Source: Flavobacteriales bacterium
GTDB taxonomy: Bacteria; Bacteroidota; Bacteroidia; Palsa-965
Assembly: GCA_040377305.1 (NCBI GenBank)
Contig: JBEIPA010000034.1
Coordinates: 1 to 54,916 of the forward strand
DNA: 54,916 bases
Direction: 5' to 3'
This document shows positions 2,335-51,148 of this stretch, one piece after another; positions within the stretch are counted from its first letter, which is position 1, and the number at the start of each line of letters is the position of its first letter. Below the pieces are notes generated by a model that saw only the letters and a program-made list of their open reading frames with translations, was not told where the DNA came from and made no database searches. The position numbers were made by a program, and so were the translations under genes.

Positions 2335-2958
2335 ATCGCAGCTCCATTTAACAAGAAGCCCTTTGGCACTGGTCCTGGAAGACCATTCACACCGGGCGGA
2401 TCACGTCCACCATTTAATCGTGGACCACGCACACCACGCGTAAAAGAAGAATTGCACCGCATCAACGAAAAAATTCGTGATGTAACTCAGGTGCGTGTTG
2501 TAGGCGAAGGCATTGAGCCTGGCGTTTACGCAATCTCAAAGGCACTCGAGATGGCTAAAGAAGCCGAACTCGACCTTGTGGAGATAGTAGCCGGAGCAGA
2601 TCCTCCCGTATGTCGTATTGTCGACTACAAGAAGTTTCTTTACGAACAGAAGAAGAAACAGAAGGAGATCAAGTCTAAGGCACAAAAAGTGGTCGTGAAA
2701 GAAATCCGATTCGGTCCACAAACCGATGATCACGATTTCAATTTCAAGAAAAATCACGCGCTCCGCTTCCTTGAAGAAGGTGCGAAAGTGAAAGCATATG
2801 TAATGTTCCGCGGCCGATCAATCGTGTTCAAGGAACAAGGTGAAATTCTTTTGCTGCGTTTTGCACAGGAGTTGGAAGAGTTCGGGAAAGTTGAAGGACT
2901 TCCACAGCTCGAAGGCAAGCGTATGCAGATGATGATTGCGCCTAAAAAGAAAAAGTAA
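2335..2958 (+). CDS. infC: Translation initiation factor IF-3, probable non-canonical ATC start
   Basis: IF3 motifs ([40 protein letters not shown]). The frame is open upstream of the track's TTG 2452 to ATC 2335, which follows GGAGGT. Confidence 0.95.
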
Positions 2959-3090
2959 TTCGAAGATTCGAAAATTTGAAGATTTGAACGTGGACCCGGC
3001 TAAATAAGTCGGGTCCTTCTTTTTTGCGGAAATTCGGGCAATATCACCAGTATTTCCTCGAATTTTCAAATCTTCAAATCTTCGAATTTT
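2959..3090. repeat. Inverted pair of degenerate 8-bp arrays (TTYGAARA) enclosing a terminator
   Basis: ttcgaaga ttcgaaaa tttgaaga tttgaa at 2959-2988; reverse-complement array at 3058-3090. Confidence 0.75.
2992..3025 (+). terminator. Intrinsic terminator after infC
   Basis: ggacccggc-taaataa-gtcgggtcc followed by ttctttttt. Confidence 0.8.
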
Positions 3091-3122
3091 AGCGTAAATC
3101 TTGTTTTTAAGAAGAAAATAAC

Positions 3123-3871: not shown

Positions 3872-3903
3872 AGAGAGCCGTTCCGAGAGGGGCGGCTTTT
3901 TTG
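3872..3903 (+). terminator. Intrinsic terminator after rplT
   Basis: gagccgttcc-gaga-ggggcggctt followed by a T run. Confidence 0.75.
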
Positions 3904-3964
3904 TTGGGGTGGTCTCAAGATTCGATGGACTACTTTACCTTAGAGTTCCAACTTATTCTGAGAC

Positions 3965-5557
3965 ATGGATCATCACGATTTGTACAAGTGTGTTGAATTA
4001 CTACGACACAAATCAAAAGGCATGTTTCAACGTGAGAAAATTGAGGAGAAATCAAAGTGCCTGGATCTAATCTCCCAATTTGGTAAACCCTATCATATTG
4101 CATATGTTTCAGAGTTTCTCCAACACAGTAACGCTTTAATTCGTGACAAGACAGCCGAAGTAATCATAAAATTATTCAAACAGATTAGGGGTAAGAAGAA
4201 TTTATACCAAAGCTTGCGGCATTGTCATATTCCCTTGAGCTGGATAGATCGTTTCAAGATTGATTTTGGTTTACACGAGTCTCATTATCTACTGGCGATC
4301 GCAAGCCTTAATGGTAACGGATATGTTCGCCAACGCGCAGTCAGGGAACTTGGTACTATTGCCAATCCAAATTCTATTCCATTCATTATTTTTCGTTTAG
4401 GTGATTGGGTCAAAGAAGTTCGAACTGAAGCCTCTGCAGCAATCCGTTGTTATTTTAAACCAGAATATTTTGAAGATTTTTTGCGGCAGTTAATACTCTT
4501 CGATTGGATACTGCGAGTCGAGCGTATCGATCTAAAAAACATATACGACGAAATCTATAGCTACATTTTTAGCTTTGAGTTGGACGCGAACCTTTGCTCG
4601 CGTATCAATAACCTGGAAGACAAAACCAGATTCCAGTACTTCAAAGCATACGCGAAGCGCTTCAAGATCAGTTCTCAACTCGCACAATTAATTGTAAAGG
4701 ATAAGTCATATCTCGTGCGAGAACAGGTTGTAGAATCTCTTGAAAACTTCAACACAAATGATCAGAAGATGTTCATCAGTACTTTACTGAGCGATCCTTC
4801 CTCCTCCATCAGAGTTCAGGCTCTTCGACATACGGCCAAGTTTGAGACTGAGTTCAATCAGCAAAGATTGGTAATGCTATCGGACGAAGCAGCTGCAGTG
4901 AGGGAATTGGCACGGTTCCTTTTGAGAAATACTCAACTGGATGTTCGTGAAATTTACAAGTCCCGAATTAAACAAAAAGTACAATTAGAAGGAAGCATAT
5001 TGGGCTTGTCAGATGTTGGTGTCTCAGACGATCTGCCGTACCTCGAGGAATTTATCAATAGCAAAAAGAAGAATATAAAATTAGCATGTCTTAAAGCAAT
5101 TCAGAAAATGAATCCTCCTCGTGCCAAAGAATACGCATTGCAATTTTTGAGTCATGATTTGAGAAGTATAAGAAACGCGTGTATAGTGATTCTCCGGAAC
5201 AATTCCGACCAAGATGTTTTGAACAAAGCGCGTGAAATGTACGCTACCGGAAACTGCGAGGAAAGAAAAACCGCACTGAAACTTTTCAATCAAATTGGCG
5301 GCTGGAGTGTTATTGGTGACATCTTGATTGGCATTCGCGATATCGATATGGGATTACAGGAAATTTCATGGCAATTTCTTCAAATCTGGAAATTACAAGC
5401 TACTTCACTTTTCACGAAACCGGAGGATTCTGAAATTGCCAGGGCTCGTGAAATTTATCTGGATACAACTAGGGCTAATATAGAAATGAGTTATCCGAGA
5501 GAAATTCTGTGGAATGATCTGCCGTTTTTCCTCGGTATTGATTCAGTGAAATCATAA
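3965..5557 (+). CDS. HEAT/ARM-repeat protein, function unknown
   Basis: Repeated helical motifs (NGYVRQRAV, DWVKEVR, SYLVREQ, DPSSSIRVQAL, DEAAAVRELA). Confidence 0.75.
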   Translation: MDHHDLYKCVELLRHKSKGMFQREKIEEKSKCLDLISQFGKPYHIAYVSEFLQHSNALIRDKTAEVIIKLFKQIRGKKNLYQSLRHCHIPLSWIDRFKIDFGLHESHYLLAIASLNGNGYVRQRAVRELGTIANPNSIPFIIFRLGDWVKEVRTEASAAIRCYFKPEYFEDFLRQLILFDWILRVERIDLKNIYDEIYSYIFSFELDANLCSRINNLEDKTRFQYFKAYAKRFKISSQLAQLIVKDKSYLVREQVVESLENFNTNDQKMFISTLLSDPSSSIRVQALRHTAKFETEFNQQRLVMLSDEAAAVRELARFLLRNTQLDVREIYKSRIKQKVQLEGSILGLSDVGVSDDLPYLEEFINSKKKNIKLACLKAIQKMNPPRAKEYALQFLSHDLRSIRNACIVILRNNSDQDVLNKAREMYATGNCEERKTALKLFNQIGGWSVIGDILIGIRDIDMGLQEISWQFLQIWKLQATSLFTKPEDSEIARAREIYLDTTRANIEMSYPREILWNDLPFFLGIDSVKS

Positions 5558-7424: not shown

Positions 7425-9779
7425 ATGAAAAAACTCTACTCAGCAATTCGTGCTAAGGTTATGCTCGCGTGTCTCGGCACATTCTTTTCTATCTCTTCTT
7501 TTGGACAAACCGATGTTCTCGTTTGCGGTGCATCTTCTCCACAGTCGTGGCTCGATGATGTAGTCAATAAACTGGTTGCAACCGGGAGCTTCAATACGGT
7601 AACCAGCTACAACATTTATTCGACCGGCACTCCTTCCCTTGCACAACTGCAGATGTATGACGCCGTTCTTGTTTTCACCGATTACAGCGCGATGGATCCC
7701 GTGACAATGGGTAATAACCTTGCGCTCTATGTTGACGGTGGTGGTGCAGTAGTAAGCGCAACATTCGCTAACGCAAGTGTGCTTCTAGGTGGTAACTGGA
7801 ATACGTCTACATATCAGGTATGCATTCCAAATAACGGACAGAACTCGAGTCCACAACTAACGCTTGGAACAGTTAATCCTTGCAGCGGAATCATGACCGG
7901 CATCACATCATTTGATGGAGGATCCAGTTCGTACCGTTCCAGCAGTTCTTCATTCGTAGCGGGATCAACAACTGAAGCAAGCTGGAGTAATGGTGAGTGG
8001 CTTGTTGCTACACGTCAGAACGTAGGTCCAATGAATGCGCGTCGTGCCGATCTTAATTTCTACCCGCCATCAAGTACTGTTCGCAGTGACTTCTGGCAGT
8101 CAGGAACACAAGGTGGAATGCTTATGGCGCGTGCATTGTTATGGGCTGCTGGTGTAATTAATAACGCTGCAGCACCTACTGCACCTGCATCAGTAAGCGG
8201 AACAAATACTTTCTGCGCAGGCTCATCATCATCATTCACCGCTGCGTCTGTAGTTGGCGCAACGTCTTACACGTGGTCAGTTCCTGTTGGAATGACTATC
8301 ACAAGCGGACAAGGAACAATCACGATCAACGTAAACTCAACTGCAGTTAGCGGAAACGTAACCGTTACTGCAGACAATGCATGTGGTTCGAGCACACCAA
8401 CAACTTATGCGGTTACTGTAAATCCACAACCCACTGTAGGTTCTACAGCTTCTCCATCAGTTACGGTTTGTAGTGGCACTCCTGTTACTTTAAGCGGAAC
8501 AGGAGCTTCAATGTATGCATGGACTGGTGGTGTAGTAGACGGTGTTCCATTTACACCTGTCATGAGTGGAACATATACCGTAACAGGTACAGATGCTAAC
8601 GGATGTACGAATACATCTACTTCTTCTATCACGGTTAATGCACTTCCTTCAGTTGTTGCGAATACAACTGCTTCTGCGGTGTGTACTGGTAACGCGGTTA
8701 CGCTTAGCGGATCGGGCGCGGCTAACTATACTTGGACAGGTGGTGTAATGGATGCAGTTCCGTTCACTCCGGCTTCAACAGACACTTACACGGTTACAGG
8801 AACAGATGCGAACGGTTGTTCAAACACAGCTTCAGTAATGGTAACGGTGAATGCGCTGCCGATTGTAGTTGCGAATACTTCAGCTTCTGCAGTGTGTGCC
8901 GGCGATCAGGTTACACTTTCAGGTTCAGGAGCATCAAGCTACGTGTGGACAGGCGGCGTAATGGATGCAGTTGCGTTTACTCCGGTTTCAACAGACACAT
9001 ACACGGTTACAGGGACGGATGCGAACGGTTGTTCGAACACGGCTAATGTAATGGTAACGTTGAACGCTCTTCCAACTGTTGGAAGCAATCCTTCTTCTGC
9101 TACTGTATGTGAAGATGGTCAGGTTACATTGAGCGGAACAGGTGCAGCAATGTACATGTGGATGCCGATGATTACAGATGCATCACCATTTACTCCGGCA
9201 ATAAGCGACACGTACACTGTAACAGGAACTGATGCAAACGGATGTTCAAATACTGCAACAGTATCAGTTACTGTAAACGCTAATCCTATTGTTACAGGTT
9301 CTGCACCGGTTTCAATTGCTTGTTTGGATGATGCGGCAATCACGCTTTCAGAATCTCCTGCGGGCGGTATCTGGACAGGACCTGGCATGTCAGGAAGTGT
9401 TTTCACTCCGATGACGGCTGGTAACGGAACACATCAGTTGATTTATTCTTACTCTGATGCAAATTCATGTGTTGCTTCGGATACAGTTTCAATCCAGGTT
9501 GATCTTTGTCTCGGACTTGCAGACAACGCAACAAACAACTTCAATGTGTACCCGAATCCAAACAACGGAACATTCACACTTGCAATCAATAAAAACGCAG
9601 GTGACGTGGTGATCGAAATGGTTGATCTTGCAGGACGTGTTGTTTACTCTGCAAATGAGAACAACGTTCAATCAGGATTCACAACTCAGATCGTTACTGA
9701 AAACCTCGCGGCTGGTTCGTATGTGCTGCGTGTGACTTCTGCGAATGAGCAGAATGTTGTTCGTGTTAACGTTCAGTAG
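7425..9779 (+). CDS. T9SS type-A cargo protein with Ig-like/PKD repeats (paralog 1)
   Basis: Signal peptide; TYTVTGTDANGC repeats with about 71-aa period; C-terminal VYPNPNNG...LAAGSYVLRV domain. Start trimmed to match the paralog. Confidence 0.88.
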   Translation: MKKLYSAIRAKVMLACLGTFFSISSFGQTDVLVCGASSPQSWLDDVVNKLVATGSFNTVTSYNIYSTGTPSLAQLQMYDAVLVFTDYSAMDPVTMGNNLALYVDGGGAVVSATFANASVLLGGNWNTSTYQVCIPNNGQNSSPQLTLGTVNPCSGIMTGITSFDGGSSSYRSSSSSFVAGSTTEASWSNGEWLVATRQNVGPMNARRADLNFYPPSSTVRSDFWQSGTQGGMLMARALLWAAGVINNAAAPTAPASVSGTNTFCAGSSSSFTAASVVGATSYTWSVPVGMTITSGQGTITINVNSTAVSGNVTVTADNACGSSTPTTYAVTVNPQPTVGSTASPSVTVCSGTPVTLSGTGASMYAWTGGVVDGVPFTPVMSGTYTVTGTDANGCTNTSTSSITVNALPSVVANTTASAVCTGNAVTLSGSGAANYTWTGGVMDAVPFTPASTDTYTVTGTDANGCSNTASVMVTVNALPIVVANTSASAVCAGDQVTLSGSGASSYVWTGGVMDAVAFTPVSTDTYTVTGTDANGCSNTANVMVTLNALPTVGSNPSSATVCEDGQVTLSGTGAAMYMWMPMITDASPFTPAISDTYTVTGTDANGCSNTATVSVTVNANPIVTGSAPVSIACLDDAAITLSESPAGGIWTGPGMSGSVFTPMTAGNGTHQLIYSYSDANSCVASDTVSIQVDLCLGLADNATNNFNVYPNPNNGTFTLAINKNAGDVVIEMVDLAGRVVYSANENNVQSGFTTQIVTENLAAGSYVLRVTSANEQNVVRVNVQ

Positions 9780-9810
9780 ATAGTCTGTAAGTTTCTAACT
9801 TATATGTCAG

Positions 9811-9838
9811 AAGCCGATCCGTAATGGGTCGGCTTTTG
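9811..9838 (+). terminator. Intrinsic terminator
   Basis: aagccgatcc-gtaat-gggtcggctttt; duplicated at 12313-12345. Confidence 0.75.
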
Positions 9839-10137
9839 ACTTTGGCATTAGTGTCGACGAAGTACCAACCGATAAAACCCGGGCCAAACAAACGAGCCTG
9901 CACCCTCGAAGCTGATCCTCAAATTTCGTCGATGAACGCGGTGTTGCTGTCTATTGACCTGAGAAAAATGCCTGCGATCTGCAAATCTGAGGCAAAAACC
10001 AAAATGCATTCTCTTTCCTTTCAAATGCATTATCGGATGAATATTGCTGTTATATGGGTGGTGCAGACGCTGTAAGTCGTTGACGATTTCTTATCTTTCG
10101 TACGGCAGTTATTACACACGTACAAAACCAAAATCGG

Positions 10138-12282
10138 ATGAAAAAACTCTACACAGCAATTCGTGCAAAGATTGTGCTCGCTTGTCTCGGCATTTTCTTG
10201 TCAACCTCTTCATTTGCGCAGACCGATGTCCTCGTTTGTGGCGCATGTTCACCTCAATCGTGGCTCGATGATGTAGTCAACAAACTCATTGCTACAGGCA
10301 GTTTCAACAGTGTAACCGGCTACAACATTTACCTCACAGGCACACCTACGCTTGCCCAGTTGCAAGCTTATGATGCTGTCATGGTTTTCACGGATTACCA
10401 GGCTGCAGATCCTACAACTTTCGGTGACAACCTCGCGATGTACATCGATGGTGGTGGTGGTGTAGTAAACAGCACGTTCGCCAATGCCAGCGTACTTCTT
10501 GGCGGGAATTTCAATACTGCAACCTATCAGGTTTCCATTCCTGCATTCGGACAATTCGGAAGCCCGCAGTTAACGCTCGGCTCTATCCTTGATCCTTGCA
10601 GTCCGATCATGGACAACGTTACAACCTTTAATGGCGGATCAAGTTCTTACCGTTCGAACGCAACAACATTCGTCCCGGGCTCAGTAACAGTTTCAAACTG
10701 GAGTAACGGAGAATGGCTCGTTGCAACACGCACAAACGTTGGACCATTAAACGCACGTCGTTGCGACCTTAACTTCTACCCTCCTTCAAGCGATGTGCGT
10801 AGCGACTTCTGGCAATCGTCAACAAACGGTGCAACACTGATGGCCAATGCACTTCTGTGGGTAGCAGGTGTAACCAATAGCGCTTCAACTCCTACTCCGC
10901 CCGCTTCTGTAACCGGTGCACCAGTTTTCTGTGCAGGTTCTGTTTCTTCATTCACGGCTGCAGCTGTGGTGGGAGCTACATCTTACACATGGACAGTTCC
11001 AGTTGGAATGACAATCACAAGCGGACAGGGTACAATCACAATCAATGTAAACTCAACTGCGCAGACGGGAACCGTATCAGTTACAGCGAACAATTCCTGT
11101 GGTTCAAGCACTCCTACCACTTATTCATTTAGTGTGAATCCTCAGCCAACTGTTGGATCTACAGCAGCACCATCGATGGCAATATGTAACGGCTCTCCAA
11201 TTACACTGAACGGTACGGGTGCAGTTTCCTACACATGGTCGGGTGGTATTTTTGATGGTGTTGCTTTTACACCACCATCCAGCACGTCTTATATTGTGAC
11301 CGGTACTGATGCAAACGGATGTACGAATACTGCAACAGCAAACGTTACTGTGAACCCACTTCCAAACGTTGGCGCAACTACAACAGCTACTAGCATTTGT
11401 GCAGGTGGTTCAGTTACGCTGAATGGAACCGGGGCTACTTCTTACACCTGGAGCCACAGTGTGATAGACAATACACCATTCAATCCAACGGTAACAACTA
11501 CTTACACCGTAACTGGTACAGATGCAAATGGATGCACAGATCAGGGAGTGGTTACAGTGAACGTATTTAATTCACTCAACGTAGGTAGCAACCCGCCATC
11601 TGCAAGTGTTTGTAACGGCGGTACCGTTACACTCTCAGGAACAGGTGCATCTTCTTACAGCTGGTCACCTGCAATTACCAATGGTCAACCTTTCACTCCA
11701 ACAGTAAGCGGCACGTACACAGTTACAGGTACTGCTTCAAACGGATGTTTTGACACGGCTACTGTTCTGGTCACTGTTGATTCATTCCCAACTGTTACGG
11801 CTACGGCTCCAGTTACAATTGCATGTCTTAACGATGCGTCGTTTACTATCACAGGTAATCCTGCTGGTGGATTGTGGACTGGTCCTGGCGTTGCAAGCAG
11901 TACGTTCAATCCTGCAGGTGCTGGAATTGGCTCGCACATGTTGATTTACGGTTACATGAATGCTGCAGGATGTGCGGCTCAGGATACAATTTTCATGACT
12001 GTTGATCTCTGCCTTGGAATTACAGACAACACGTCAAATAATTACAACGTTTATCCTAACCCGAACAACGGAACATTCACACTTGCTATCAACAGCAATC
12101 CAGGTGATGTAGTAATCGAAATGGTTGATCTAACAGGACGTGTTGTTTACTCAGCTAATGAGAACAACGTTCAGTCAGGATTCACTACACAGATTGTTAC
12201 AGAAAACCTTGCTGCCGGAGCTTATATGCTACGTGTTACTTCTGCAAATGATCAGCAGGTAATCCGTATCAACGTACAGTAA
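10138..12282 (+). CDS. T9SS type-A cargo protein with Ig-like/PKD repeats (paralog 2)
   Basis: Collinear with 7425-9779 but one Ig repeat shorter; VYPNPNNG C-terminal domain. Confidence 0.88.
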   Translation: MKKLYTAIRAKIVLACLGIFLSTSSFAQTDVLVCGACSPQSWLDDVVNKLIATGSFNSVTGYNIYLTGTPTLAQLQAYDAVMVFTDYQAADPTTFGDNLAMYIDGGGGVVNSTFANASVLLGGNFNTATYQVSIPAFGQFGSPQLTLGSILDPCSPIMDNVTTFNGGSSSYRSNATTFVPGSVTVSNWSNGEWLVATRTNVGPLNARRCDLNFYPPSSDVRSDFWQSSTNGATLMANALLWVAGVTNSASTPTPPASVTGAPVFCAGSVSSFTAAAVVGATSYTWTVPVGMTITSGQGTITINVNSTAQTGTVSVTANNSCGSSTPTTYSFSVNPQPTVGSTAAPSMAICNGSPITLNGTGAVSYTWSGGIFDGVAFTPPSSTSYIVTGTDANGCTNTATANVTVNPLPNVGATTTATSICAGGSVTLNGTGATSYTWSHSVIDNTPFNPTVTTTYTVTGTDANGCTDQGVVTVNVFNSLNVGSNPPSASVCNGGTVTLSGTGASSYSWSPAITNGQPFTPTVSGTYTVTGTASNGCFDTATVLVTVDSFPTVTATAPVTIACLNDASFTITGNPAGGLWTGPGVASSTFNPAGAGIGSHMLIYGYMNAAGCAAQDTIFMTVDLCLGITDNTSNNYNVYPNPNNGTFTLAINSNPGDVVIEMVDLTGRVVYSANENNVQSGFTTQIVTENLAAGAYMLRVTSANDQQVIRINVQ

Positions 12283-12526: not shown

Positions 12527-13966
12527 GTGAACCTTCCTCCTTCACATCTCGAGTCTCTCAAGCAATCGCTCGGCGAAGAGTTTGATGCGTTTGCGAAAGC
12601 GTATGAGACGACCGGGCCTACATCGATTCGCATCAACACACTAAAATGGACAGGTGAACAACCAACTGATCAGATCAGGTGGAACAATACAGGTTACTAC
12701 CTCGCAGAACGCCCTTCCTTCACCCACGATCCGCTTTTTCACGGAGGATTGTATTACGTGCAGGAAGCGAGCTCTCAGTTTTTATCACATGTGGCGAAAA
12801 CTGTTTTCCCCAAAGATGTTCCACTAAAAGTTCTTGACTTGTGTGCAGCTCCGGGAGGAAAGTCAACCTTGTTGTTGAGTGAATTGAATGACGATTCACT
12901 TTTGGTGAGCAACGAAGTCATTCGAACTCGATCACACATTCTCGCAGAAAATATTGCGAAGTGGGGAAAACCAAACGTTGTTGTTTCGAATAACGATCCC
13001 GAACAATTCGAAAAACTGAAAGGCTTCTTCGATGTGATTGTTGTCGACGCTCCGTGTTCGGGCGAAGGACTATTTCGTCGCGATCCTGAACTGACCAGTG
13101 AATGGAGCGAAAGCAACGTGGACTTGTGTTCCGCGCGACAGAAACGAATTGTGATGGACATCTGGCCGTCTTTGAAAGAAGGTGGACTGCTTGTGTACTC
13201 GACGTGTACGTTTAACACGAAGGAGAATGAGGAGAATTTGCAGTGGCTATCGACGCAGATTGGATTTGAGTCGGTGAAGCTGGATGTGCCGGAGGAATGG
13301 AATATTGTGGAAACGTCATCCTCCGCATTGTCAACCTTCGACTACGCTCAGTCTGACAAAGATCGCGGCGCAAGTGACGTTGTCAGACTGAGCGTAGCCG
13401 AAGTAGACAACGGGACAGAGTCTTTGTTTGGCTACCGATTCTATCCTCACCGCGTCAAAGGCGAAGGCTTCTTCATTTCCGTCTTACGAAAAACCGAACC
13501 GCAAACTTCTTCTTCCCACAAAGAAAAAACGCTCTTCCCACCTGCTCCATCGAAAGAGAAGAATGAAGTTGCTCCGTGGCTGAAGAATGCAGAGCAATTC
13601 GATTTCGTTCGTCGTGGCGATCACGTGCTGGCGATTCAAAAACAACATACAGATATCGTGCATCGTTTATCGCGCACATTAAACTGTGTGCAGTATGGAA
13701 TTCCGGTTGCAGATGCCGGCAAAGGAATGAAACCGCTGCACGAACTGGCATTGAGTGTACATTTAAATAAAGATGCGTTTCATCAGACCGCGCTCACGAA
13801 AGAAGAAGCTCTGAAATTTCTTGCCAAAGAAGATTTCAAAGTGAACGATACGCACAAAGGAATTTCGTTGATGACGTTTGAAGGTGTGCCGCTTGGATGG
13901 ATGAATTTACTCGGCAATCGGGCAAACAATCTCTATCCAAAAGAATGGAGGATTCGTAGATTGTAA
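12527..13966 (+). CDS. RsmB/NOP2-family (RsmF-like) RNA m5C methyltransferase carrying an in-frame palindrome insertion
   Basis: YYVQEASS, VLDLCAAPGGKST, VDAPCSGEG, YSTCT, GEGFF, C-terminal NNLYPKEWRIR. Confidence 0.92.
   Translation: MNLPPSHLESLKQSLGEEFDAFAKAYETTGPTSIRINTLKWTGEQPTDQIRWNNTGYYLAERPSFTHDPLFHGGLYYVQEASSQFLSHVAKTVFPKDVPLKVLDLCAAPGGKSTLLLSELNDDSLLVSNEVIRTRSHILAENIAKWGKPNVVVSNNDPEQFEKLKGFFDVIVVDAPCSGEGLFRRDPELTSEWSESNVDLCSARQKRIVMDIWPSLKEGGLLVYSTCTFNTKENEENLQWLSTQIGFESVKLDVPEEWNIVETSSSALSTFDYAQSDKDRGASDVVRLSVAEVDNGTESLFGYRFYPHRVKGEGFFISVLRKTEPQTSSSHKEKTLFPPAPSKEKNEVAPWLKNAEQFDFVRRGDHVLAIQKQHTDIVHRLSRTLNCVQYGIPVADAGKGMKPLHELALSVHLNKDAFHQTALTKEEALKFLAKEDFKVNDTHKGISLMTFEGVPLGWMNLLGNRANNLYPKEWRIRRL
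13328..13410. mobile_element. Intragenic REPIN-like inverted repeat (about 31-bp arms, 20-nt spacer)
   Basis: ttgtcaaccttcgactacgctcagtctgacaa ... ttgtcagactgagcgtagccgaagtagacaa; same family as 2251, 13967, 18475 and 23180. Confidence 0.8.
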
Positions 13967-29229: not shown

Positions 29230-29432
29230 GAGGGTGCTGCCTTTGGCAACACATGTTTTGTCCCTACAGGACAAGTTGTGACATCGGGATTTACGCCGTG
29301 AAATTATTTCCGGAGTGATTTTACGGAAGTCAGAAACGGCCATCTCGTCTCACTTTCCCGTGCATCACAATTTACGTTCTCACAATGGCCTCCAATAGAG
29401 GCCAAACATGTGTTGCCAAAGGCAGCACCCTC
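29230..29432. mobile_element. MITE/REPIN-like element with perfect 29-bp terminal inverted repeats
   Basis: gagggtgctgcctttggcaacacatgttt (29230-29258) and its exact reverse complement (29404-29432), each with an internal small hairpin. Confidence 0.7.
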
Positions 29433-29488: not shown

Positions 29489-29899
29489 ATGGCAAGAATC
29501 CTCGCAGTCGATTACGGAACCAAACGCTGCGGCATTGCTGTAACCGACTCAATGCAGATCATTGCCACAGGCTTAACCACCGTTCACAGCAAAGACATCA
29601 TCGACTTCCTGAAGAAATACATGGAGAAGGAATCCGTGGAGTGCATTGTAGTTGGCGAACCGAAAGATCTCCGTGGCGGACGCACCGATGCCAGCGAACA
29701 TGCGGATGGATTCGTGACCTCACTCAAACGCAACTTCCCCGGAATGAAAATCGCACGAGTCGATGAGCGATTCACTTCGAAGATGGCGACCAAAACTATT
29801 CTCGACTCGGGCATGAAGAAAAAAGATCGTCAGAATAAGGAGCTGGTTGATGAAGTATCCGCAACGATACTGCTGCAGCATTTTATGGGAATGGTTTAG
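29489..29899 (+). CDS. ruvX: YqgF/RuvX pre-16S rRNA nuclease
   Basis: ILAVDYGTKRCGIAVTD, VDERFTS, VDEVSATILLQ; start trimmed to ATG 29489. Confidence 0.94.
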   Translation: MARILAVDYGTKRCGIAVTDSMQIIATGLTTVHSKDIIDFLKKYMEKESVECIVVGEPKDLRGGRTDASEHADGFVTSLKRNFPGMKIARVDERFTSKMATKTILDSGMKKKDRQNKELVDEVSATILLQHFMGMV

Positions 29900-29954
29900 C
29901 TTTTCCGGGTTCTCTCCTATGGAGAGTTAGAGAGACGCGGAAAAGCTAAACCAT
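29891..29954. repeat. Inverted repeat (17-bp perfect arms) overlapping the ruvX stop
   Basis: atggtttagcttttccg ... cggaaaagctaaaccat, with inner ctctcc-tat-ggagag. Confidence 0.75.
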
Positions 29955-30025
29955 CCACACAGGTAGCTGCAAATTTTTTCTTCGACTGCCTCCTTCACTA
30001 CTGCCAAACTGCCTACTTTTGCCCC

Positions 30026-30601
30026 ATGATTCTTCCAATTGTAGCTTTTGGCGACCCCGTACTCAAGAAAGTAGCGGTTGATATTGACCCCAGCTATCCC
30101 GACTTACAAGAGCTGATTGCAAATATGTTCGACACCATGAGCAACGCAAAAGGTGTTGGTCTGGCTGCACCACAAATCGGTAAGTCAATACGTTTGTTCG
30201 TTGTAGATGCTACTCCATTCAGTGTTGATGCCGAGAATGACGAAGAAGCGGCACTCGCTGGTTTCCGCCGCGTCATTATAAACGCAAAAATCACCGACGA
30301 GAACGGAAAAGAATGGGCTTTCAACGAAGGTTGTCTGAGTATTCCCAAAATCCGCGAAGACGTGATGCGTAAGCCGAATGTGACGATCGAGTACGTCGAC
30401 GAAAATTTCAAACCAAAGAAAGAAAAATTCAAAGGTCTTGCTGCGCGAATTATCCAGCACGAATACGATCACATCGAAGGAAAATTATTCACAGACCGCA
30501 TCAGTGCACTGAGAAAACGTTTGCTGCTGACTAAGCTCAACAATATTTCAAAAGGTCGCGTGGAAGTTGATTATAGAATGCGTTTCCCAAATAAAAAATG
30601 A
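30026..30601 (+). CDS. def: Peptide deformylase
   Basis: GVGLAAPQIG, EGCLS, QHEYDH. Confidence 0.97.
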   Translation: MILPIVAFGDPVLKKVAVDIDPSYPDLQELIANMFDTMSNAKGVGLAAPQIGKSIRLFVVDATPFSVDAENDEEAALAGFRRVIINAKITDENGKEWAFNEGCLSIPKIREDVMRKPNVTIEYVDENFKPKKEKFKGLAARIIQHEYDHIEGKLFTDRISALRKRLLLTKLNNISKGRVEVDYRMRFPNKK

Positions 30602-31167
30602 TGAATAAGCTCCTACTATTCTTAAGCACGATTACAATCGCAGGTTTGATTTCTTGTGGTGGTGGTGAAACAACCGGCAAAGTCGACACGCAAGCTGTGA
30701 TGGCTGCGAAAATTGATTCGCTCTATGTAAAAATGGGACAAAGTCAGCAGTATGACCAGGCGGAAGCGATGAATGCTATGCGGATGTACGTGGAATATTC
30801 TACAAAGTATCCGACAGATTCATTGACACCTGAGTTTCTTTTCCGCGCATCAGACATTGCTCAAGGATCCGGAAATTACCAGCAGGCAGCAGAATTTCTC
30901 GAAACCATTCTGGAGAAACACACGATGTACACGAAGTATCCGGATGTATTATTTTCTGCGGCGTTGGTTTACGATAACTATCTTGAAAACGTCAACCACG
31001 GCGATGATCGTGCGATTCAATTGTACGATGTAATCATTTCGAAATATCCGGAGTCAAACTACGCGGAACAATCAAAGGTGCTCAAGACGTATGTTGGAAA
31101 ACCGGATAGCGTTTTCTATAATGATATTCGTCGCAAGGCTGACTCAATCGAGGCTCAGAAAAAGTAA
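30598..31167 (+). CDS. TPR-containing lipoprotein
   Basis: LISC lipobox; YPTDSLTPEFLF, A..LY..II.KYPES TPR-like motifs. Confidence 0.8.
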   Translation: MMNKLLLFLSTITIAGLISCGGGETTGKVDTQAVMAAKIDSLYVKMGQSQQYDQAEAMNAMRMYVEYSTKYPTDSLTPEFLFRASDIAQGSGNYQQAAEFLETILEKHTMYTKYPDVLFSAALVYDNYLENVNHGDDRAIQLYDVIISKYPESNYAEQSKVLKTYVGKPDSVFYNDIRRKADSIEAQKK

Positions 31168-31353
31168 CGCGGATTTTGATATCCTAAACTTGTTAGGCGT
31201 TCTCTCGGATGTCTGCGGTAAATTGAATATTACGTAATCGGATTTTATGAGATAAGCCCAAACGTATCTCATAAAATCAAATAACTACTTTTCATAGTCA
31301 GTAGGCTAATCCGAAGGTAGAAGTAGAAAACAACGGACATAAAAATCCGCGTT
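31166..31353. repeat. 188-bp rod-like palindromic element, copy 1
   Basis: Ends aacgcggatttt / aaaatccgcgtt; central stem gattttatgagata / tatctcataaaatc. Confidence 0.85.
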
Positions 31354-31380
31354 CTCAATTAAGTGAGGGGTAGAAAAAGT

Positions 31381-31568
31381 AACGCGGATTATGATATTCT
31401 AAACTTGTTAGACGTTCCCTCGGATGTCTGCGGTAACTTGAATATTTCGTAATCAGATTTTATGAGATAAACTCAAGCCTCTCTCATAAAATCAAATAAC
31501 CGCTTTTCGTGTTCAGTAGAATGATCCGGGCGAAGGAATAGAAAACAACGGACATAAAAATCCGCGTT
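31381..31568. repeat. 188-bp rod-like palindromic element, copy 2
   Basis: Diverged direct repeat of 31166-31353, period 215 bp, with stems conserved. Confidence 0.85.
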
Positions 31569-31572
31569 CCAA

Positions 31573-32370
31573 TTACGCTTCCGTCAAATGCTTTTCGAGA
31601 TAAGCCTTCAACTCTTCCGCTGATAAATTCGCCTGCATCTCCCCGTCTTTCGCCACTGCAATTTCCCCGGTTTGTTCCGAGACAATAATCGCGAGGCAAT
31701 CTGCATTTTCTGTTACGCCTACAGCCGCGCGGTGACGCATACCCAAGTGCGCCGGGAAGTCCGTATTCTCTGTAACAGGAAGTACACAACGTGCTGCACG
31801 GATTGTATTATTGGATATAATCACAGCACCATCGTGCAACGGACTGTTCTTATAGAAAATACTTTCGAGCATGCGTACCGAAACTTTCGCATCGATAGGA
31901 TCACCAGTGTTCGTGTAGAATTTCAGATCGTTGTTGCGGGTGATGACGATGATCGCTCCCGTATTTGTATCGGCCATGTTCTTGCATGAACGAACAACTG
32001 CAGCAATATCCAGGGAAGTATGCTTACTCTCTCCTCCCCAATTGAAAAGCGCTTTCGTAAATCGTTGTCCGCCCACCACATTGTAGCTGCCGACAAACAA
32101 GAAGAAACGTCGCAACTCCTGCTGAAACACGATCAGCAGTGCAATTACACCTACATCAATGAACTTCTCGAGAATGCTGGAGAACAAATCCATCTCCGCA
32201 ACGCGAACAAGGCGGTAAAAAAGATAAACAAACGCCACCCCGATGAAAATGTTGAGTGCCGCAGTTCCTTTCACCAGGCGATAAAGCTGGTACATAAGGA
32301 CCGCGACCAGAACGATGTCCAGAGCATCTTTCCACTGAAATTGCAAGAATAAAACGACTAAGGAATGCAT
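31573..32370 (-). CDS. cdaA: Diadenylate cyclase CdaA/DacA
   Basis: 3 N-terminal TM helices, IVFQQELRR, SPLHDGAVI, GMRHRAA, IVSEQTG; start trimmed to ATG 32370. Confidence 0.93.
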   Translation of the reverse strand: MHSLVVLFLQFQWKDALDIVLVAVLMYQLYRLVKGTAALNIFIGVAFVYLFYRLVRVAEMDLFSSILEKFIDVGVIALLIVFQQELRRFFLFVGSYNVVGGQRFTKALFNWGGESKHTSLDIAAVVRSCKNMADTNTGAIIVITRNNDLKFYTNTGDPIDAKVSVRMLESIFYKNSPLHDGAVIISNNTIRAARCVLPVTENTDFPAHLGMRHRAAVGVTENADCLAIIVSEQTGEIAVAKDGEMQANLSAEELKAYLEKHLTEA

Positions 32371-32414
32371 TGCCGTAAAAATACACATACCGTGTGAATG
32401 TGCCACGTGTCAAT

Positions 32415-32565
32415 ATTCAACCCCTTCAGGGTTGTTCTACATTGAACTTTTTCTTTCTACCGAAATTGAATCCCTTCAGGATTCCTGTGCACGAAGAACT
32501 CCGGAGGAGTTCAATTTCGGTAGAAAGAAAAAACGTGTGGTGACCCGACCCTGAAGGGGTCGAAT
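32415..32565. mobile_element. Composite REPIN/BIME-like element (four small hairpins within nested inverted repeats)
   Basis: Outer arms 32415-32434 / 32546-32565; perfect 23-bp inner arms 32448-32470 / 32510-32532. Confidence 0.75.
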
Positions 32566-32568
32566 TTT

Positions 32569-43640: not shown

Positions 43641-43734
43641 GGAATGGAGATTGAGGGATTAGGGGAATAAGGGATTAGGGGATTCAGGCCAACTTCATGC
43701 CCAAATCCCCTAATCCCTTAATTCCTTAATCCCT
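43641..43734. repeat. Inverted pair of degenerate 8-bp arrays (GGGATTAG / CTAATCCC)
   Basis: gggattag gggaataa gggattag gggatt ... aaatcccc taatccct taattcct taatccct. Confidence 0.8.
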
Positions 43735-45171: not shown

Positions 45172-45242
45172 AGAGTTGATTTTGTAAAGCGAAGATAGAA
45201 ATTTGCGTTCCTAATTAGACTAAGCCTGAAACCAAAAGTTTA

Positions 45243-45268
45243 ACCACGAAGTGCACGAAGACACAAAG
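45243..45268. repeat. Single arm of the CACGAAG palindrome family
   Basis: accacgaagtgcacgaagacacaaag. Confidence 0.7.
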
Positions 45269-45337
45269 TTTTGGACAGTTTGTTCAGAGTAGAACCGTGA
45301 TCTGAACTTACTAACGTTGAACTAGTAGTCTGGAAAC

Positions 45338-49765: not shown

Positions 49766-49873
49766 TCGGGTCAAACATGACTTAATGGCAAAACGGGCTA
49801 CAAAGTTCCTGTTTTTTGATGAAAAAGCAGAGATATTAATCGAATACTGGCTGAACCTGCAACTTCTTTTTCT

Positions 49874-49937
49874 ACCACGAAGAGCACCAAGACACAAAGG
49901 TTTAGCCGTTTCTTAGTGTCTTCGTGAACTTTGTGGT
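49874..49937. repeat. CACGAAG-family palindromic element
   Basis: accacgaagagcaccaagacacaaag ... cttagtgtcttcgtgaactttgtggt. Confidence 0.8.
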
Positions 49938-49942
49938 CAAAT

Positions 49943-51148
49943 TTATGTGCGGAGTTTTTTCGTTTCGTCGAATACCTGCTTCAGCGCAGCCTGTTCCTGT
50001 TCCGAAAGTGTCTTGCTTCTACGCTTGTAAACATTCTGCACCATCTCTACGAATTTGTCAAAGTGAAACTCCACAACTCCGCTTTCACCGCCCCACGCAA
50101 AATCAGGAACAAACTTCTTCGGAAATCCTCCTCCAAAAATATTCGCACCGACTCCGACTACAGTGCCCGTGTTGAACATGGTATTGATTCCGCATTTCGA
50201 ATGATCGCCCATGATTAGGCCGTGAAACTGCATCCCGCTATTTTGACTTGCTCCAATAGCGTAATTGTAAACCGAAACTTCTCCGTAGTTGTTCTTGAGG
50301 TTCGATGTGTTTGTATCTGCACCGAGATTACACCACTCACCAATTACGCTGTTGCCAACATAACCGTCGTGTGCTTTGTTGGAGTTCGCGAAGAAAACCG
50401 AATTGGTAATCTCACCTCCAACTTTACATCCGGGACCAATGGTTGTGTCTCCGTAAATCTTTGCACCCATTTTTATCTGTGCACCGTCGCAAATAGCAAG
50501 AGGTCCGCGCAACATGGAACCTTCCATAATTTCTACGTTCTCTCCAATGTAAATCGGGCCTTTGGTCGTATTGAAGATGCAGCCTTCAGCCACAGAAGTT
50601 TTCATCATAATTACTTCATGCGAACCAATGAATTGATTGAATGAAGGAAGCAAAGGACGCTTCGGATTCATCAGTGCGATATCTGCAACAATCTGTGCTC
50701 CGTTGTTTGTGAAAATATCTGCAATGCGGTGAATGACTTCTGCATGCACTTTAGATTCTTTCACACCAAAATCGCCAGTGAGATGATCTTTGCTATCGAC
50801 ACGATAACGTTCAACGCTATTTCCGCAATTGAAGGCAACGAGCAAATCACCCTTGATGAGTGCATCTCCGCGTTTCAAAGAAACTACTTCCGTACACAAT
50901 TCCGGATTCGGCAAAACACGTGAATTAATCCACAGGTGATTTTTCGTAGCGTCAAGTGCAAACGGCGAATGCCACTGCTCGAGATGAGGTACTGTTGCAT
51001 TCGTTGACTCTGCCTTCAGATGTTTCTCCCACTTTTCGCGAATGGTGAGAATACCAATTCTGAAATCACAAACAGGACGCGTTGATGAAAGCGGTTTGAG
51101 CGCTTCACGATACGAATCATCGAACATCACAAGCTGAATCGCCGACAT
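49943..51148 (-). CDS. GlmU-related putative sugar nucleotidyltransferase with hexapeptide repeats
   Basis: TRPV.DFRIGILTIREKW, NKAHDGYVGNSVIGEWCNLGADTNTSNLKN. Confidence 0.9.
   Translation of the reverse strand: MSAIQLVMFDDSYREALKPLSSTRPVCDFRIGILTIREKWEKHLKAESTNATVPHLEQWHSPFALDATKNHLWINSRVLPNPELCTEVVSLKRGDALIKGDLLVAFNCGNSVERYRVDSKDHLTGDFGVKESKVHAEVIHRIADIFTNNGAQIVADIALMNPKRPLLPSFNQFIGSHEVIMMKTSVAEGCIFNTTKGPIYIGENVEIMEGSMLRGPLAICDGAQIKMGAKIYGDTTIGPGCKVGGEITNSVFFANSNKAHDGYVGNSVIGEWCNLGADTNTSNLKNNYGEVSVYNYAIGASQNSGMQFHGLIMGDHSKCGINTMFNTGTVVGVGANIFGGGFPKKFVPDFAWGGESGVVEFHFDKFVEMVQNVYKRRSKTLSEQEQAALKQVFDETKKLRT

Follow-up and report, generated by a model that had tools for sequence, protein, structure and literature searches.

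The window, by which we mean the whole stretch of 54,916 nt that was analysed, carries two tandem copies of a long inverted repeat between the convergent genes for a TPR lipoprotein and the diadenylate cyclase CdaA. In what follows, G000 denotes the genome under study, other G numbers and L numbers denote genomes and loci of its relatives, and C numbers denote places within G000. The features of the junction are:

30598..31167, plus strand: TPR lipoprotein gene, BamD/CpoB-like below the family cut-offs (profile matches)
31139..31163, plus strand: left flank within the duplicated unit, the last codons of the TPR gene
31164..31254, plus strand: copy 1 arm, GTGTTAG type, with outer (G)GAACGCGGATTTT, middle CGGAT and inner GGATTTTATGAGATA motifs
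31255..31264, no strand: copy 1 central loop, 10 nt, the position of the GxxExxY gene in the master copy
31265..31355, minus strand: copy 1 inverted arm, GTTGTTTTCTA type
31356..31378, no strand: 23-nt spacer, made of a right-flank copy (CAATTA) and a degenerate duplicate of the end of the TPR gene
31379..31469, plus strand: copy 2 left arm
31470..31479, no strand: copy 2 central loop, 10 nt
31480..31570, minus strand: copy 2 inverted right arm
31573..32406, minus strand: cdaA, diadenylate cyclase (TIGR00159, above cut-off), its stop 2 nt past copy 2

The original prediction of two copies of equal length, at 31166-31353 and 31381-31568, was borne out: they align ungapped at a period of 215 and share 162 of 188 bases (87%). 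The full element, bounded by the family ends GG..CC, is 192 nt long (31164-31355 and 31379-31570), and the loop of copy 1, taken in the sense of the GxxExxY gene, reads on the minus strand. Both flanking stop codons had been thought to lie within the repeat. This is true of the TPR gene, whose TAA (31165-31167) is overlapped by the left end of copy 1, but not of cdaA, whose stop (31573-31575) is 2 nt outside the element and falls within the duplicated flank. The duplicated unit takes in both flanks, and the flank copies held in the 23-nt spacer show that element and flanks were doubled locally. Because a contig of run X2, from a separate study, bridges 31051-31418 with zero differences, the tandem is not an assembly artefact. 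Substitutions between the two copies affect 21 of 114 variable columns of the family, as against 2 of 66 conserved ones.

The element is absent from this junction in all 24 relatives, 17 of which keep the convergent gene pair in the stretch examined, and in four of them the junction is only about 6-20 nt long. Several others have different palindromes there, three of which resemble GxxExxY-type arms. Across L028-L050, differing palindrome families occupy the junction in many species of the genus; it is a hot spot for repeat exchange across the genus.

Both copies fold significantly better than their shuffled counterparts (z -5.8 and -3.5 for copies 1 and 2, with none of 200 shuffles as good for each). 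The closing stem that had been described is present (19 nt, 89% in copy 1), as is the apical stem (19-21 nt, 84-86%). The continuous end-to-end rod is not: copy 1 has a multibranched minimum-free-energy structure, much of copy 2 stays unpaired in its centroid, and the consensus structure of the family retains the outer and apical stems only. The change from cctaa..ttagg to tctaa..ttaga, read as compensatory, does exist in the sequence, but the hairpin occurs in only these 2 of 53 copies. Selection on paired stems fared no better, since none of 24 consensus pairs (18 copies) is altered on both sides and the variable columns have a deficit of mirror pairing, described below. The mutual information among columns is mostly signal from neighbouring columns and reveals no helix, and the conserved columns give no peak of helical phasing near 10.5 nt. 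What is conserved in the family is its sequence motifs and their spacing, not pairing.

We also compared the locus with Rfam. No model reached its gathering score within the window, and the best match around the locus, to the L10 leader (E 0.12, 24 bits against a cut-off of 44), is taken as chance. Neither 6S (RF00013) nor 6S-Flavo (RF01685) matches anywhere in G000. The Rfam 6S models also match nothing in G007, G010, G015, G022 or G024, and may therefore miss the 6S RNA of this lineage. A scan for sigma-70 promoters found 2 against 1.8 expected, and the two terminator-like matches are weak and lie inside the arms.

The tandem pair is real, but it is not a single-locus ncRNA. A search for further copies beyond the pair, using an iterated profile, returned 89 loci in G000, of which 57 cover more than 150 of the 188 positions and 53 are end-to-end copies. 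Each copy consists of two inverted arms of ~91 nt and a loop of ~10 nt, and every arm carries GGAACGCGGATTTT, CGGAT and GGATTTTATGAGATA at tightly held distances: the outer and middle motifs are 39 +/- 1 nt apart in 120 of the 122 arms scored, and the distance to the inner motif is 78-80 nt in 112 of them. By crude ORF calls, nearly all full copies are intergenic. Pairwise identity within the family averages 66%, the window pair and one other adjacent pair being closest, and nearest-neighbour identity has a median of 75%; because only such local pairs are recent, spreading appears to be slow or old. Single arms also form head-to-tail arrays, among the matches listed at C2, C12, C35, C45 and C60. 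BIME-like mosaic arrays, in which single arms and a TTGTCAGACTGAGCG/CCGATAGCTATCGG repeat alternate, occur at C38:1-322 and C42:3310-3463, and near C7 (about 70900-71090) and C32 (about 3900-4100) there are short-period repeats that open with GGAACGCGGATTT and continue with GCGGAT units, possibly related to the long arm, or ancestral to it, but with short arms.

The family is narrowly distributed. A DNA search of 40 relatives found it in one, G015, and a search for the core pattern found it in 2 of 35 genomes of the taxonomic family, G000 included; these tallies include the unpublished G012, counted solely as a genome without a match. The two genomes with the core pattern are the two known to carry the cognate GxxExxY gene. 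One metagenome assembly contains 7 loci of the arm family, and viral contigs yielded no matches to the arm pattern. Judging by the hits to relatives, the host probably belongs to the Bacteroidota.

At C60:144401-145287 the same arms enclose, where the loop would be, an ORF of 132 aa. Its product is a clear GxxExxY/PDDEXK_3 protein, scoring 131 bits with TIGR04256 (cut-off 35) and 134 bits with PF13366 (cut-off 22), its only profile matches. The same cassette occupies the same junction in G015 (protein 79% identical) and at the metagenome locus L185 (78%), and in all three lineages it adjoins the same neighbouring gene or genes; the master gene stays at one locus. Between G000 and G015, 37 codons of the gene are the same, 64 differ synonymously and 23 non-synonymously. 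Among four more distant relatives, the genes flanking the master are adjacent in two, with no cassette there: the junction is about 30 nt long in G022 and holds another palindrome in G007. At C11:90407-90701 a further copy still has the final 22 codons of such a gene between its arms (16 of 26 residues identical, E 5e-10), and the loops of gene-less copies resemble, by eye, the joined inner flanks of the masters.

This arrangement extends to other members of the gene family. Inverted repeats bracket all eight full GxxExxY genes of G000, every gene having its own arm sequence, and five of the other seven paralogues have 8-17 gene-less pairs. Inverted flanks accompany 74 of 92 related GxxExxY loci, as against 7 of 200 random small ORFs. 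The 92 are the 96 fetched less one redundant, one without a match and two with short flanks; many are from related Flavobacterium genomes and hence not independent, and for two of the 74 the flanks were mis-cut, which makes 72 of 90 the cleaner figure. In most of these relatives the arms are far shorter and consist of 8-10-nt units, whereas the C60 subfamily has arms of ~91 nt with the same kind of terminal motif; a full-length arm match was found only at the G015 orthologue among the other GxxExxY loci tested. The GxxExxY/PDDEXK_3 family is widespread and is present in 21 of 27 genomes of the genus.

The PD-(D/E)XK motif is the basis for assigning catalytic residues in such proteins. E33, D72, E82 and K84 are invariant or nearly so, and from this motif we infer that they have a catalytic role. 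With a pLDDT of 92, the predicted structure resembles restriction-endonuclease-like folds (the best match at Z 8.0 and an rmsd of 3.1 over 96 aligned residues), and Foldseek gives the Cas4 protein SSO0001 at E 4e-4; because many folds tie, Holliday-junction resolvases and Cas4 among them, no specific fold can be assigned. These matches are generic, no solved structure is related to the C60 protein by sequence, and nuclease function is predicted only. PDDEXK_3 is listed with function unknown in the available part of PMC3424549, "GxxExxY" is mentioned in passing in that of 10.1101/2021.01.26.428298, and the term also retrieves PMC12085832. A literature search of the main text of openly accessible papers found nothing that linked GxxExxY/PDDEXK_3 to repeats.

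Copies sit mainly behind genes. Of 62 element ends that face the 3' end of a gene, 55 are within 30 nt of the stop and 49 within 15 nt (crude ORF calls), and convergent junctions are enriched (16 of 52, against 179 of 1118; P 0.012). Polarity is unrelated to host transcription (17 versus 13), and loops and whole copies are found in both orientations; relative to the outer asymmetry, the loops of the 53 copies point one way in 22, the other in 23 and are unclear in 8. Direct repeats of 2, 3, 4 and 5 nt flank 9, 4, 2 and 0 of the 53 copies and are no commoner than inverted ones, giving no sign of a target duplication.

Comparison with G015 shows presence and absence of the element between relatives. 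Of 23 full G015 copies, drawn from 30 loci and not all that it has, 12 correspond to an element at the equivalent position in G000; the other 11 lack such a counterpart, three of them mapping by one flank or to two contigs. We aligned eight unmatched sites and, by eye, among the matches listed, most hold a different palindrome in G000; none is a clean empty-versus-filled junction. At 10 shared sites with full copies, spacer identity (0.555) is hardly higher than among paralogues (0.530), and polarity is opposite at three of the ten.

The arms of a copy pair less well than chance would have it. At 38 variable columns the two arms match in 31.5% of cases; when arms are paired by shuffling the figure is 37.0% (sd 0.9%), which makes a deficit of z about -6 that none of 10,000 shuffles reached in G000. 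The deficit recurs in G015 (33.5 versus 37.8%, P 0.0009, n=23, with about half of these copies at sites common with G000), and the longest-run statistic for pairing is significant in G000 but not in G015. Folded as RNA, native copies are less stable than arm-swapped ones (-64 versus -70 kcal/mol). A single block inversion is not the source, as the deficit persists after re-orientation (columns 48-77, z -4.8); the swap states of columns 48, 61, 68, 73 and 92 are unlinked. Nor is mismatch a general need of GxxExxY arms: it is missing from four families whose spacers measure 23-136 nt (z from -0.1 to +1.8) and confined to the two with spacers mostly below 13 nt (z -7.2 and -3.0), while the C19 family gave no pairs by the rule used and C50 only two arms. 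Because the deficit appears only where the arms nearly touch, we favour the loss of tight perfect palindromes over a need of recognition. SbcD is the usual agent of palindrome loss, and it has no match above cut-off in G000, although this genome is almost complete and has many long palindromes. This counts against such an account of the mismatched arms, as does the failure of the longest-run statistic to reach significance in G015 as it does in G000. The accessible part of PMC7999016 held nothing usable on mismatched arms.

The window and genome hold other repeats. Between cdaA and folP, at 32412-32568, is a 150-nt REPIN-like palindrome with ACCCCTTCAGGGTT ends, whose family has 16 loci in G000, 15 of them near full. 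Its arms do covary (0.49 versus 0.33, z +6.2, n=15), the opposite of the GxxExxY-arm family, and because its motif flanks 2 of the 10 Y1_Tnp genes (C8 and C46) it is probably a true REPIN-RAYT family. Gene-less palindromes at 56-119, 45220-45272 and 49851-49947 have the arms (ACCACGAAG..CACAAAG) of the GxxExxY gene at C10:11482, a family of 45 arms and 14 pairs that has a pairing deficit too. The CTTCGACTCCGCTCAGTCTGACA palindrome at 13336-13403, with related ends at 2252, 13969 and 23180, belongs to a family of 45 loci in G000 that may be linked to GIY-YIG genes. Palindromes of 8-9-nt tandem units lie at 43654-43734 and 2942-3111 (GGGATTAG and TTCGAAGA types, 37 and 7 loci) and may be linked to four-helix-bundle genes; a small ORF at C11:25401-25769 is flanked by a TTCGAAGA-type repeat. 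Two long inverted repeats surround a ruvX-like gene (29230-29432, with 42-nt arms overlapping the gene ends, and 29874-29971), each with 2 loci in G000. At 7425-12219 two large paralogous genes contain 213-nt repeats within their coding sequence, likely repeated surface-protein domains.

We believe that the hairpins at the TPR-cdaA junction are likely gene-less mobile DNA and not a 6S-like RNA, because there are dozens of genomic copies and the same arms bracket a nuclease gene. The foldback mobile element offered in the original prediction is in this way supported and made specific: the shared arms and the master locus point to a gene-less derivative of the GxxExxY cassette. The best reading of the family is as a REPIN-like non-autonomous element with a PD-(D/E)XK nuclease as its master, the binding, cutting and movement that we infer for this enzyme being proposed as follows. 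Gene-less copies would be the cassette minus the GxxExxY gene, between the same two inverted arms. The predicted nuclease probably reads the conserved motifs of the arms, and probably acts in trans to spread and reshuffle gene-less copies, in the way that RAYT is supposed to act on REPINs. It may cut at or near arms extruded as a hairpin or cruciform, and host repair might then copy the element into a new junction with no target duplication. We give a probability of about 0.6 to this as the likeliest mechanism: an enzyme that recognises its arm motifs, drives in trans the copying and inversion of elements that lack the gene, and leaves completion to host repair. We propose that copies persist mainly just behind stops because insertion is tolerated there, and that spacer bases, though free, are likely kept mismatched because perfect palindromes of such length and tight spacing would not survive.

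Copies might instead act mainly as RNA, as 3'-UTR hairpins that protect or end the mRNA or affect translation and that the host retains for this purpose, the nuclease being responsible only for their origin. The proximity of gene-facing ends to stops and the enrichment at convergent junctions fit this well, as do the unrelated palindromes that fill the same junctions in relatives and the effect on translation of REPs within 15 nt of a stop, as given in the available part of PMC12306157. Any stable hairpin would do for such a purpose, yet specific motifs and spacings are conserved; in addition, native folds are weaker than arm-swapped ones, and four relatives manage with a TPR-cdaA junction of about 6-20 nt. 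We consider an RNA role unlikely to be the main one, although it may be compatible with the nuclease explanation. It is distinctly unlikely that another enzyme, whether a RAYT or host recombination and repair, moves the palindrome and that the GxxExxY gene is a passenger captured in the loop. G000 does have 10 Y1_Tnp matches, the GxxExxY gene itself does not move, and host recombination alone can yield loop inversion and tandem arrays; but none of the 10 is within 2 kb of an arm, each of the eight paralogues has its own arm type, five of the other seven with gene-less pairs, and related loci have inverted arms far more often than the controls.

A stand-alone structured ncRNA such as 6S RNA, present in many copies, is very improbable, even though the length of ~190 nt, the closing stem, open middle and apical stem and the significant folding suggested it, and no Rfam 6S model finds another candidate in G000 or five relatives. 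The locus has no Rfam match; the family has 89 loci, is limited to 2 of 35 genomes and is missing at the same junction in 24 of 24 relatives; there is no covariation, with no changes on both sides of a pair; polarity is random and independent of transcription; and in the master a protein-coding gene stands in place of the loop. A simple local duplication of neutral intergenic DNA explains the doubling, as the pair is doubled with its flanks and is 87% alike against the family mean of 66%. As an explanation of the element it is refuted: the unit recurs across the genome, its motifs are conserved, and one copy, the master, codes for a protein.

Beyond the nuclease-driven palindrome at this locus, we tentatively suggest, at somewhat less than even odds, that GxxExxY nucleases are the masters of a separate REPIN-like class, in which every paralogue, enclosed in a palindrome of its own, keeps up its own family of gene-less copies that insert behind stops, flip in place and replace rival repeats. 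The long-armed family, with its three spaced motifs and mismatched arms, is the clearest substrate for such a class. If the suggestion is true, HUH transposases are not the only enzymes to have been domesticated as masters of palindromic repeats in bacteria. GxxExxY function is directly testable here, because one gene pairs with a 53-copy family, a deletion intermediate and seven paralogous gene/arm controls. The case also offers a caution for ncRNA screens: a well-folding rod of 6S size may turn out to be repeated DNA in which selection keeps the arms from pairing.

The family shares much with REPIN-RAYT systems, whose functioning we took from the available part of 10.1101/2021.07.10.451892. 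It has many extragenic palindromic copies that can form hairpins, with two inverted conserved ends and a variable spacer; its cognate gene lies at a fixed, vertically inherited locus beside repeats (G000, G015 and L185); and it forms half-unit arrays and tandem clusters that include flanks, as tandem REPIN clusters do in the accessible part of PMC3116915. Unlike REPIN-RAYT, the cognate gene encodes a PD-(D/E)XK (PDDEXK_3) protein and not an HUH/Y1 transposase, and it sits inside the palindrome loop; no short REP palindrome of ~14 bp was seen within the arms; and the spacers anti-covary, whereas compensatory changes are common in REPINs according to the same part of PMC3116915. On its enzyme and its spacer covariation, the family falls outside REPIN-RAYT.

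MITEs are non-autonomous derivatives of IS elements, and the gene-less copies are like them in being derived by internal deletion from a parent that bears a gene between the same ends; one intermediate still has part of that gene. They differ in that target-site duplication is absent, in that the gene matches only PF13366/TIGR04256 and no DDE transposase is involved, and in that the inverted repeats make up the whole element and the parent gene is apparently not jumping. Enterobacterial REP/BIME sequences likewise lie just behind stops and between convergent genes and form mosaic tandem arrays, but the unit here is five to nine times longer than a REP (20-40 bp in the available part of PMC3733652) and is linked to another enzyme. 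The likeness to 6S RNA (RF00013, RF01685) is one of length, two-stem outline and open middle, in an element that, unlike 6S RNA, matches no model, is multi-copy and lineage-restricted, does not covary and has no fixed strand. Within the GxxExxY family, the C60 gene is a clear member that differs from most of its relatives by its arms of ~91 nt.
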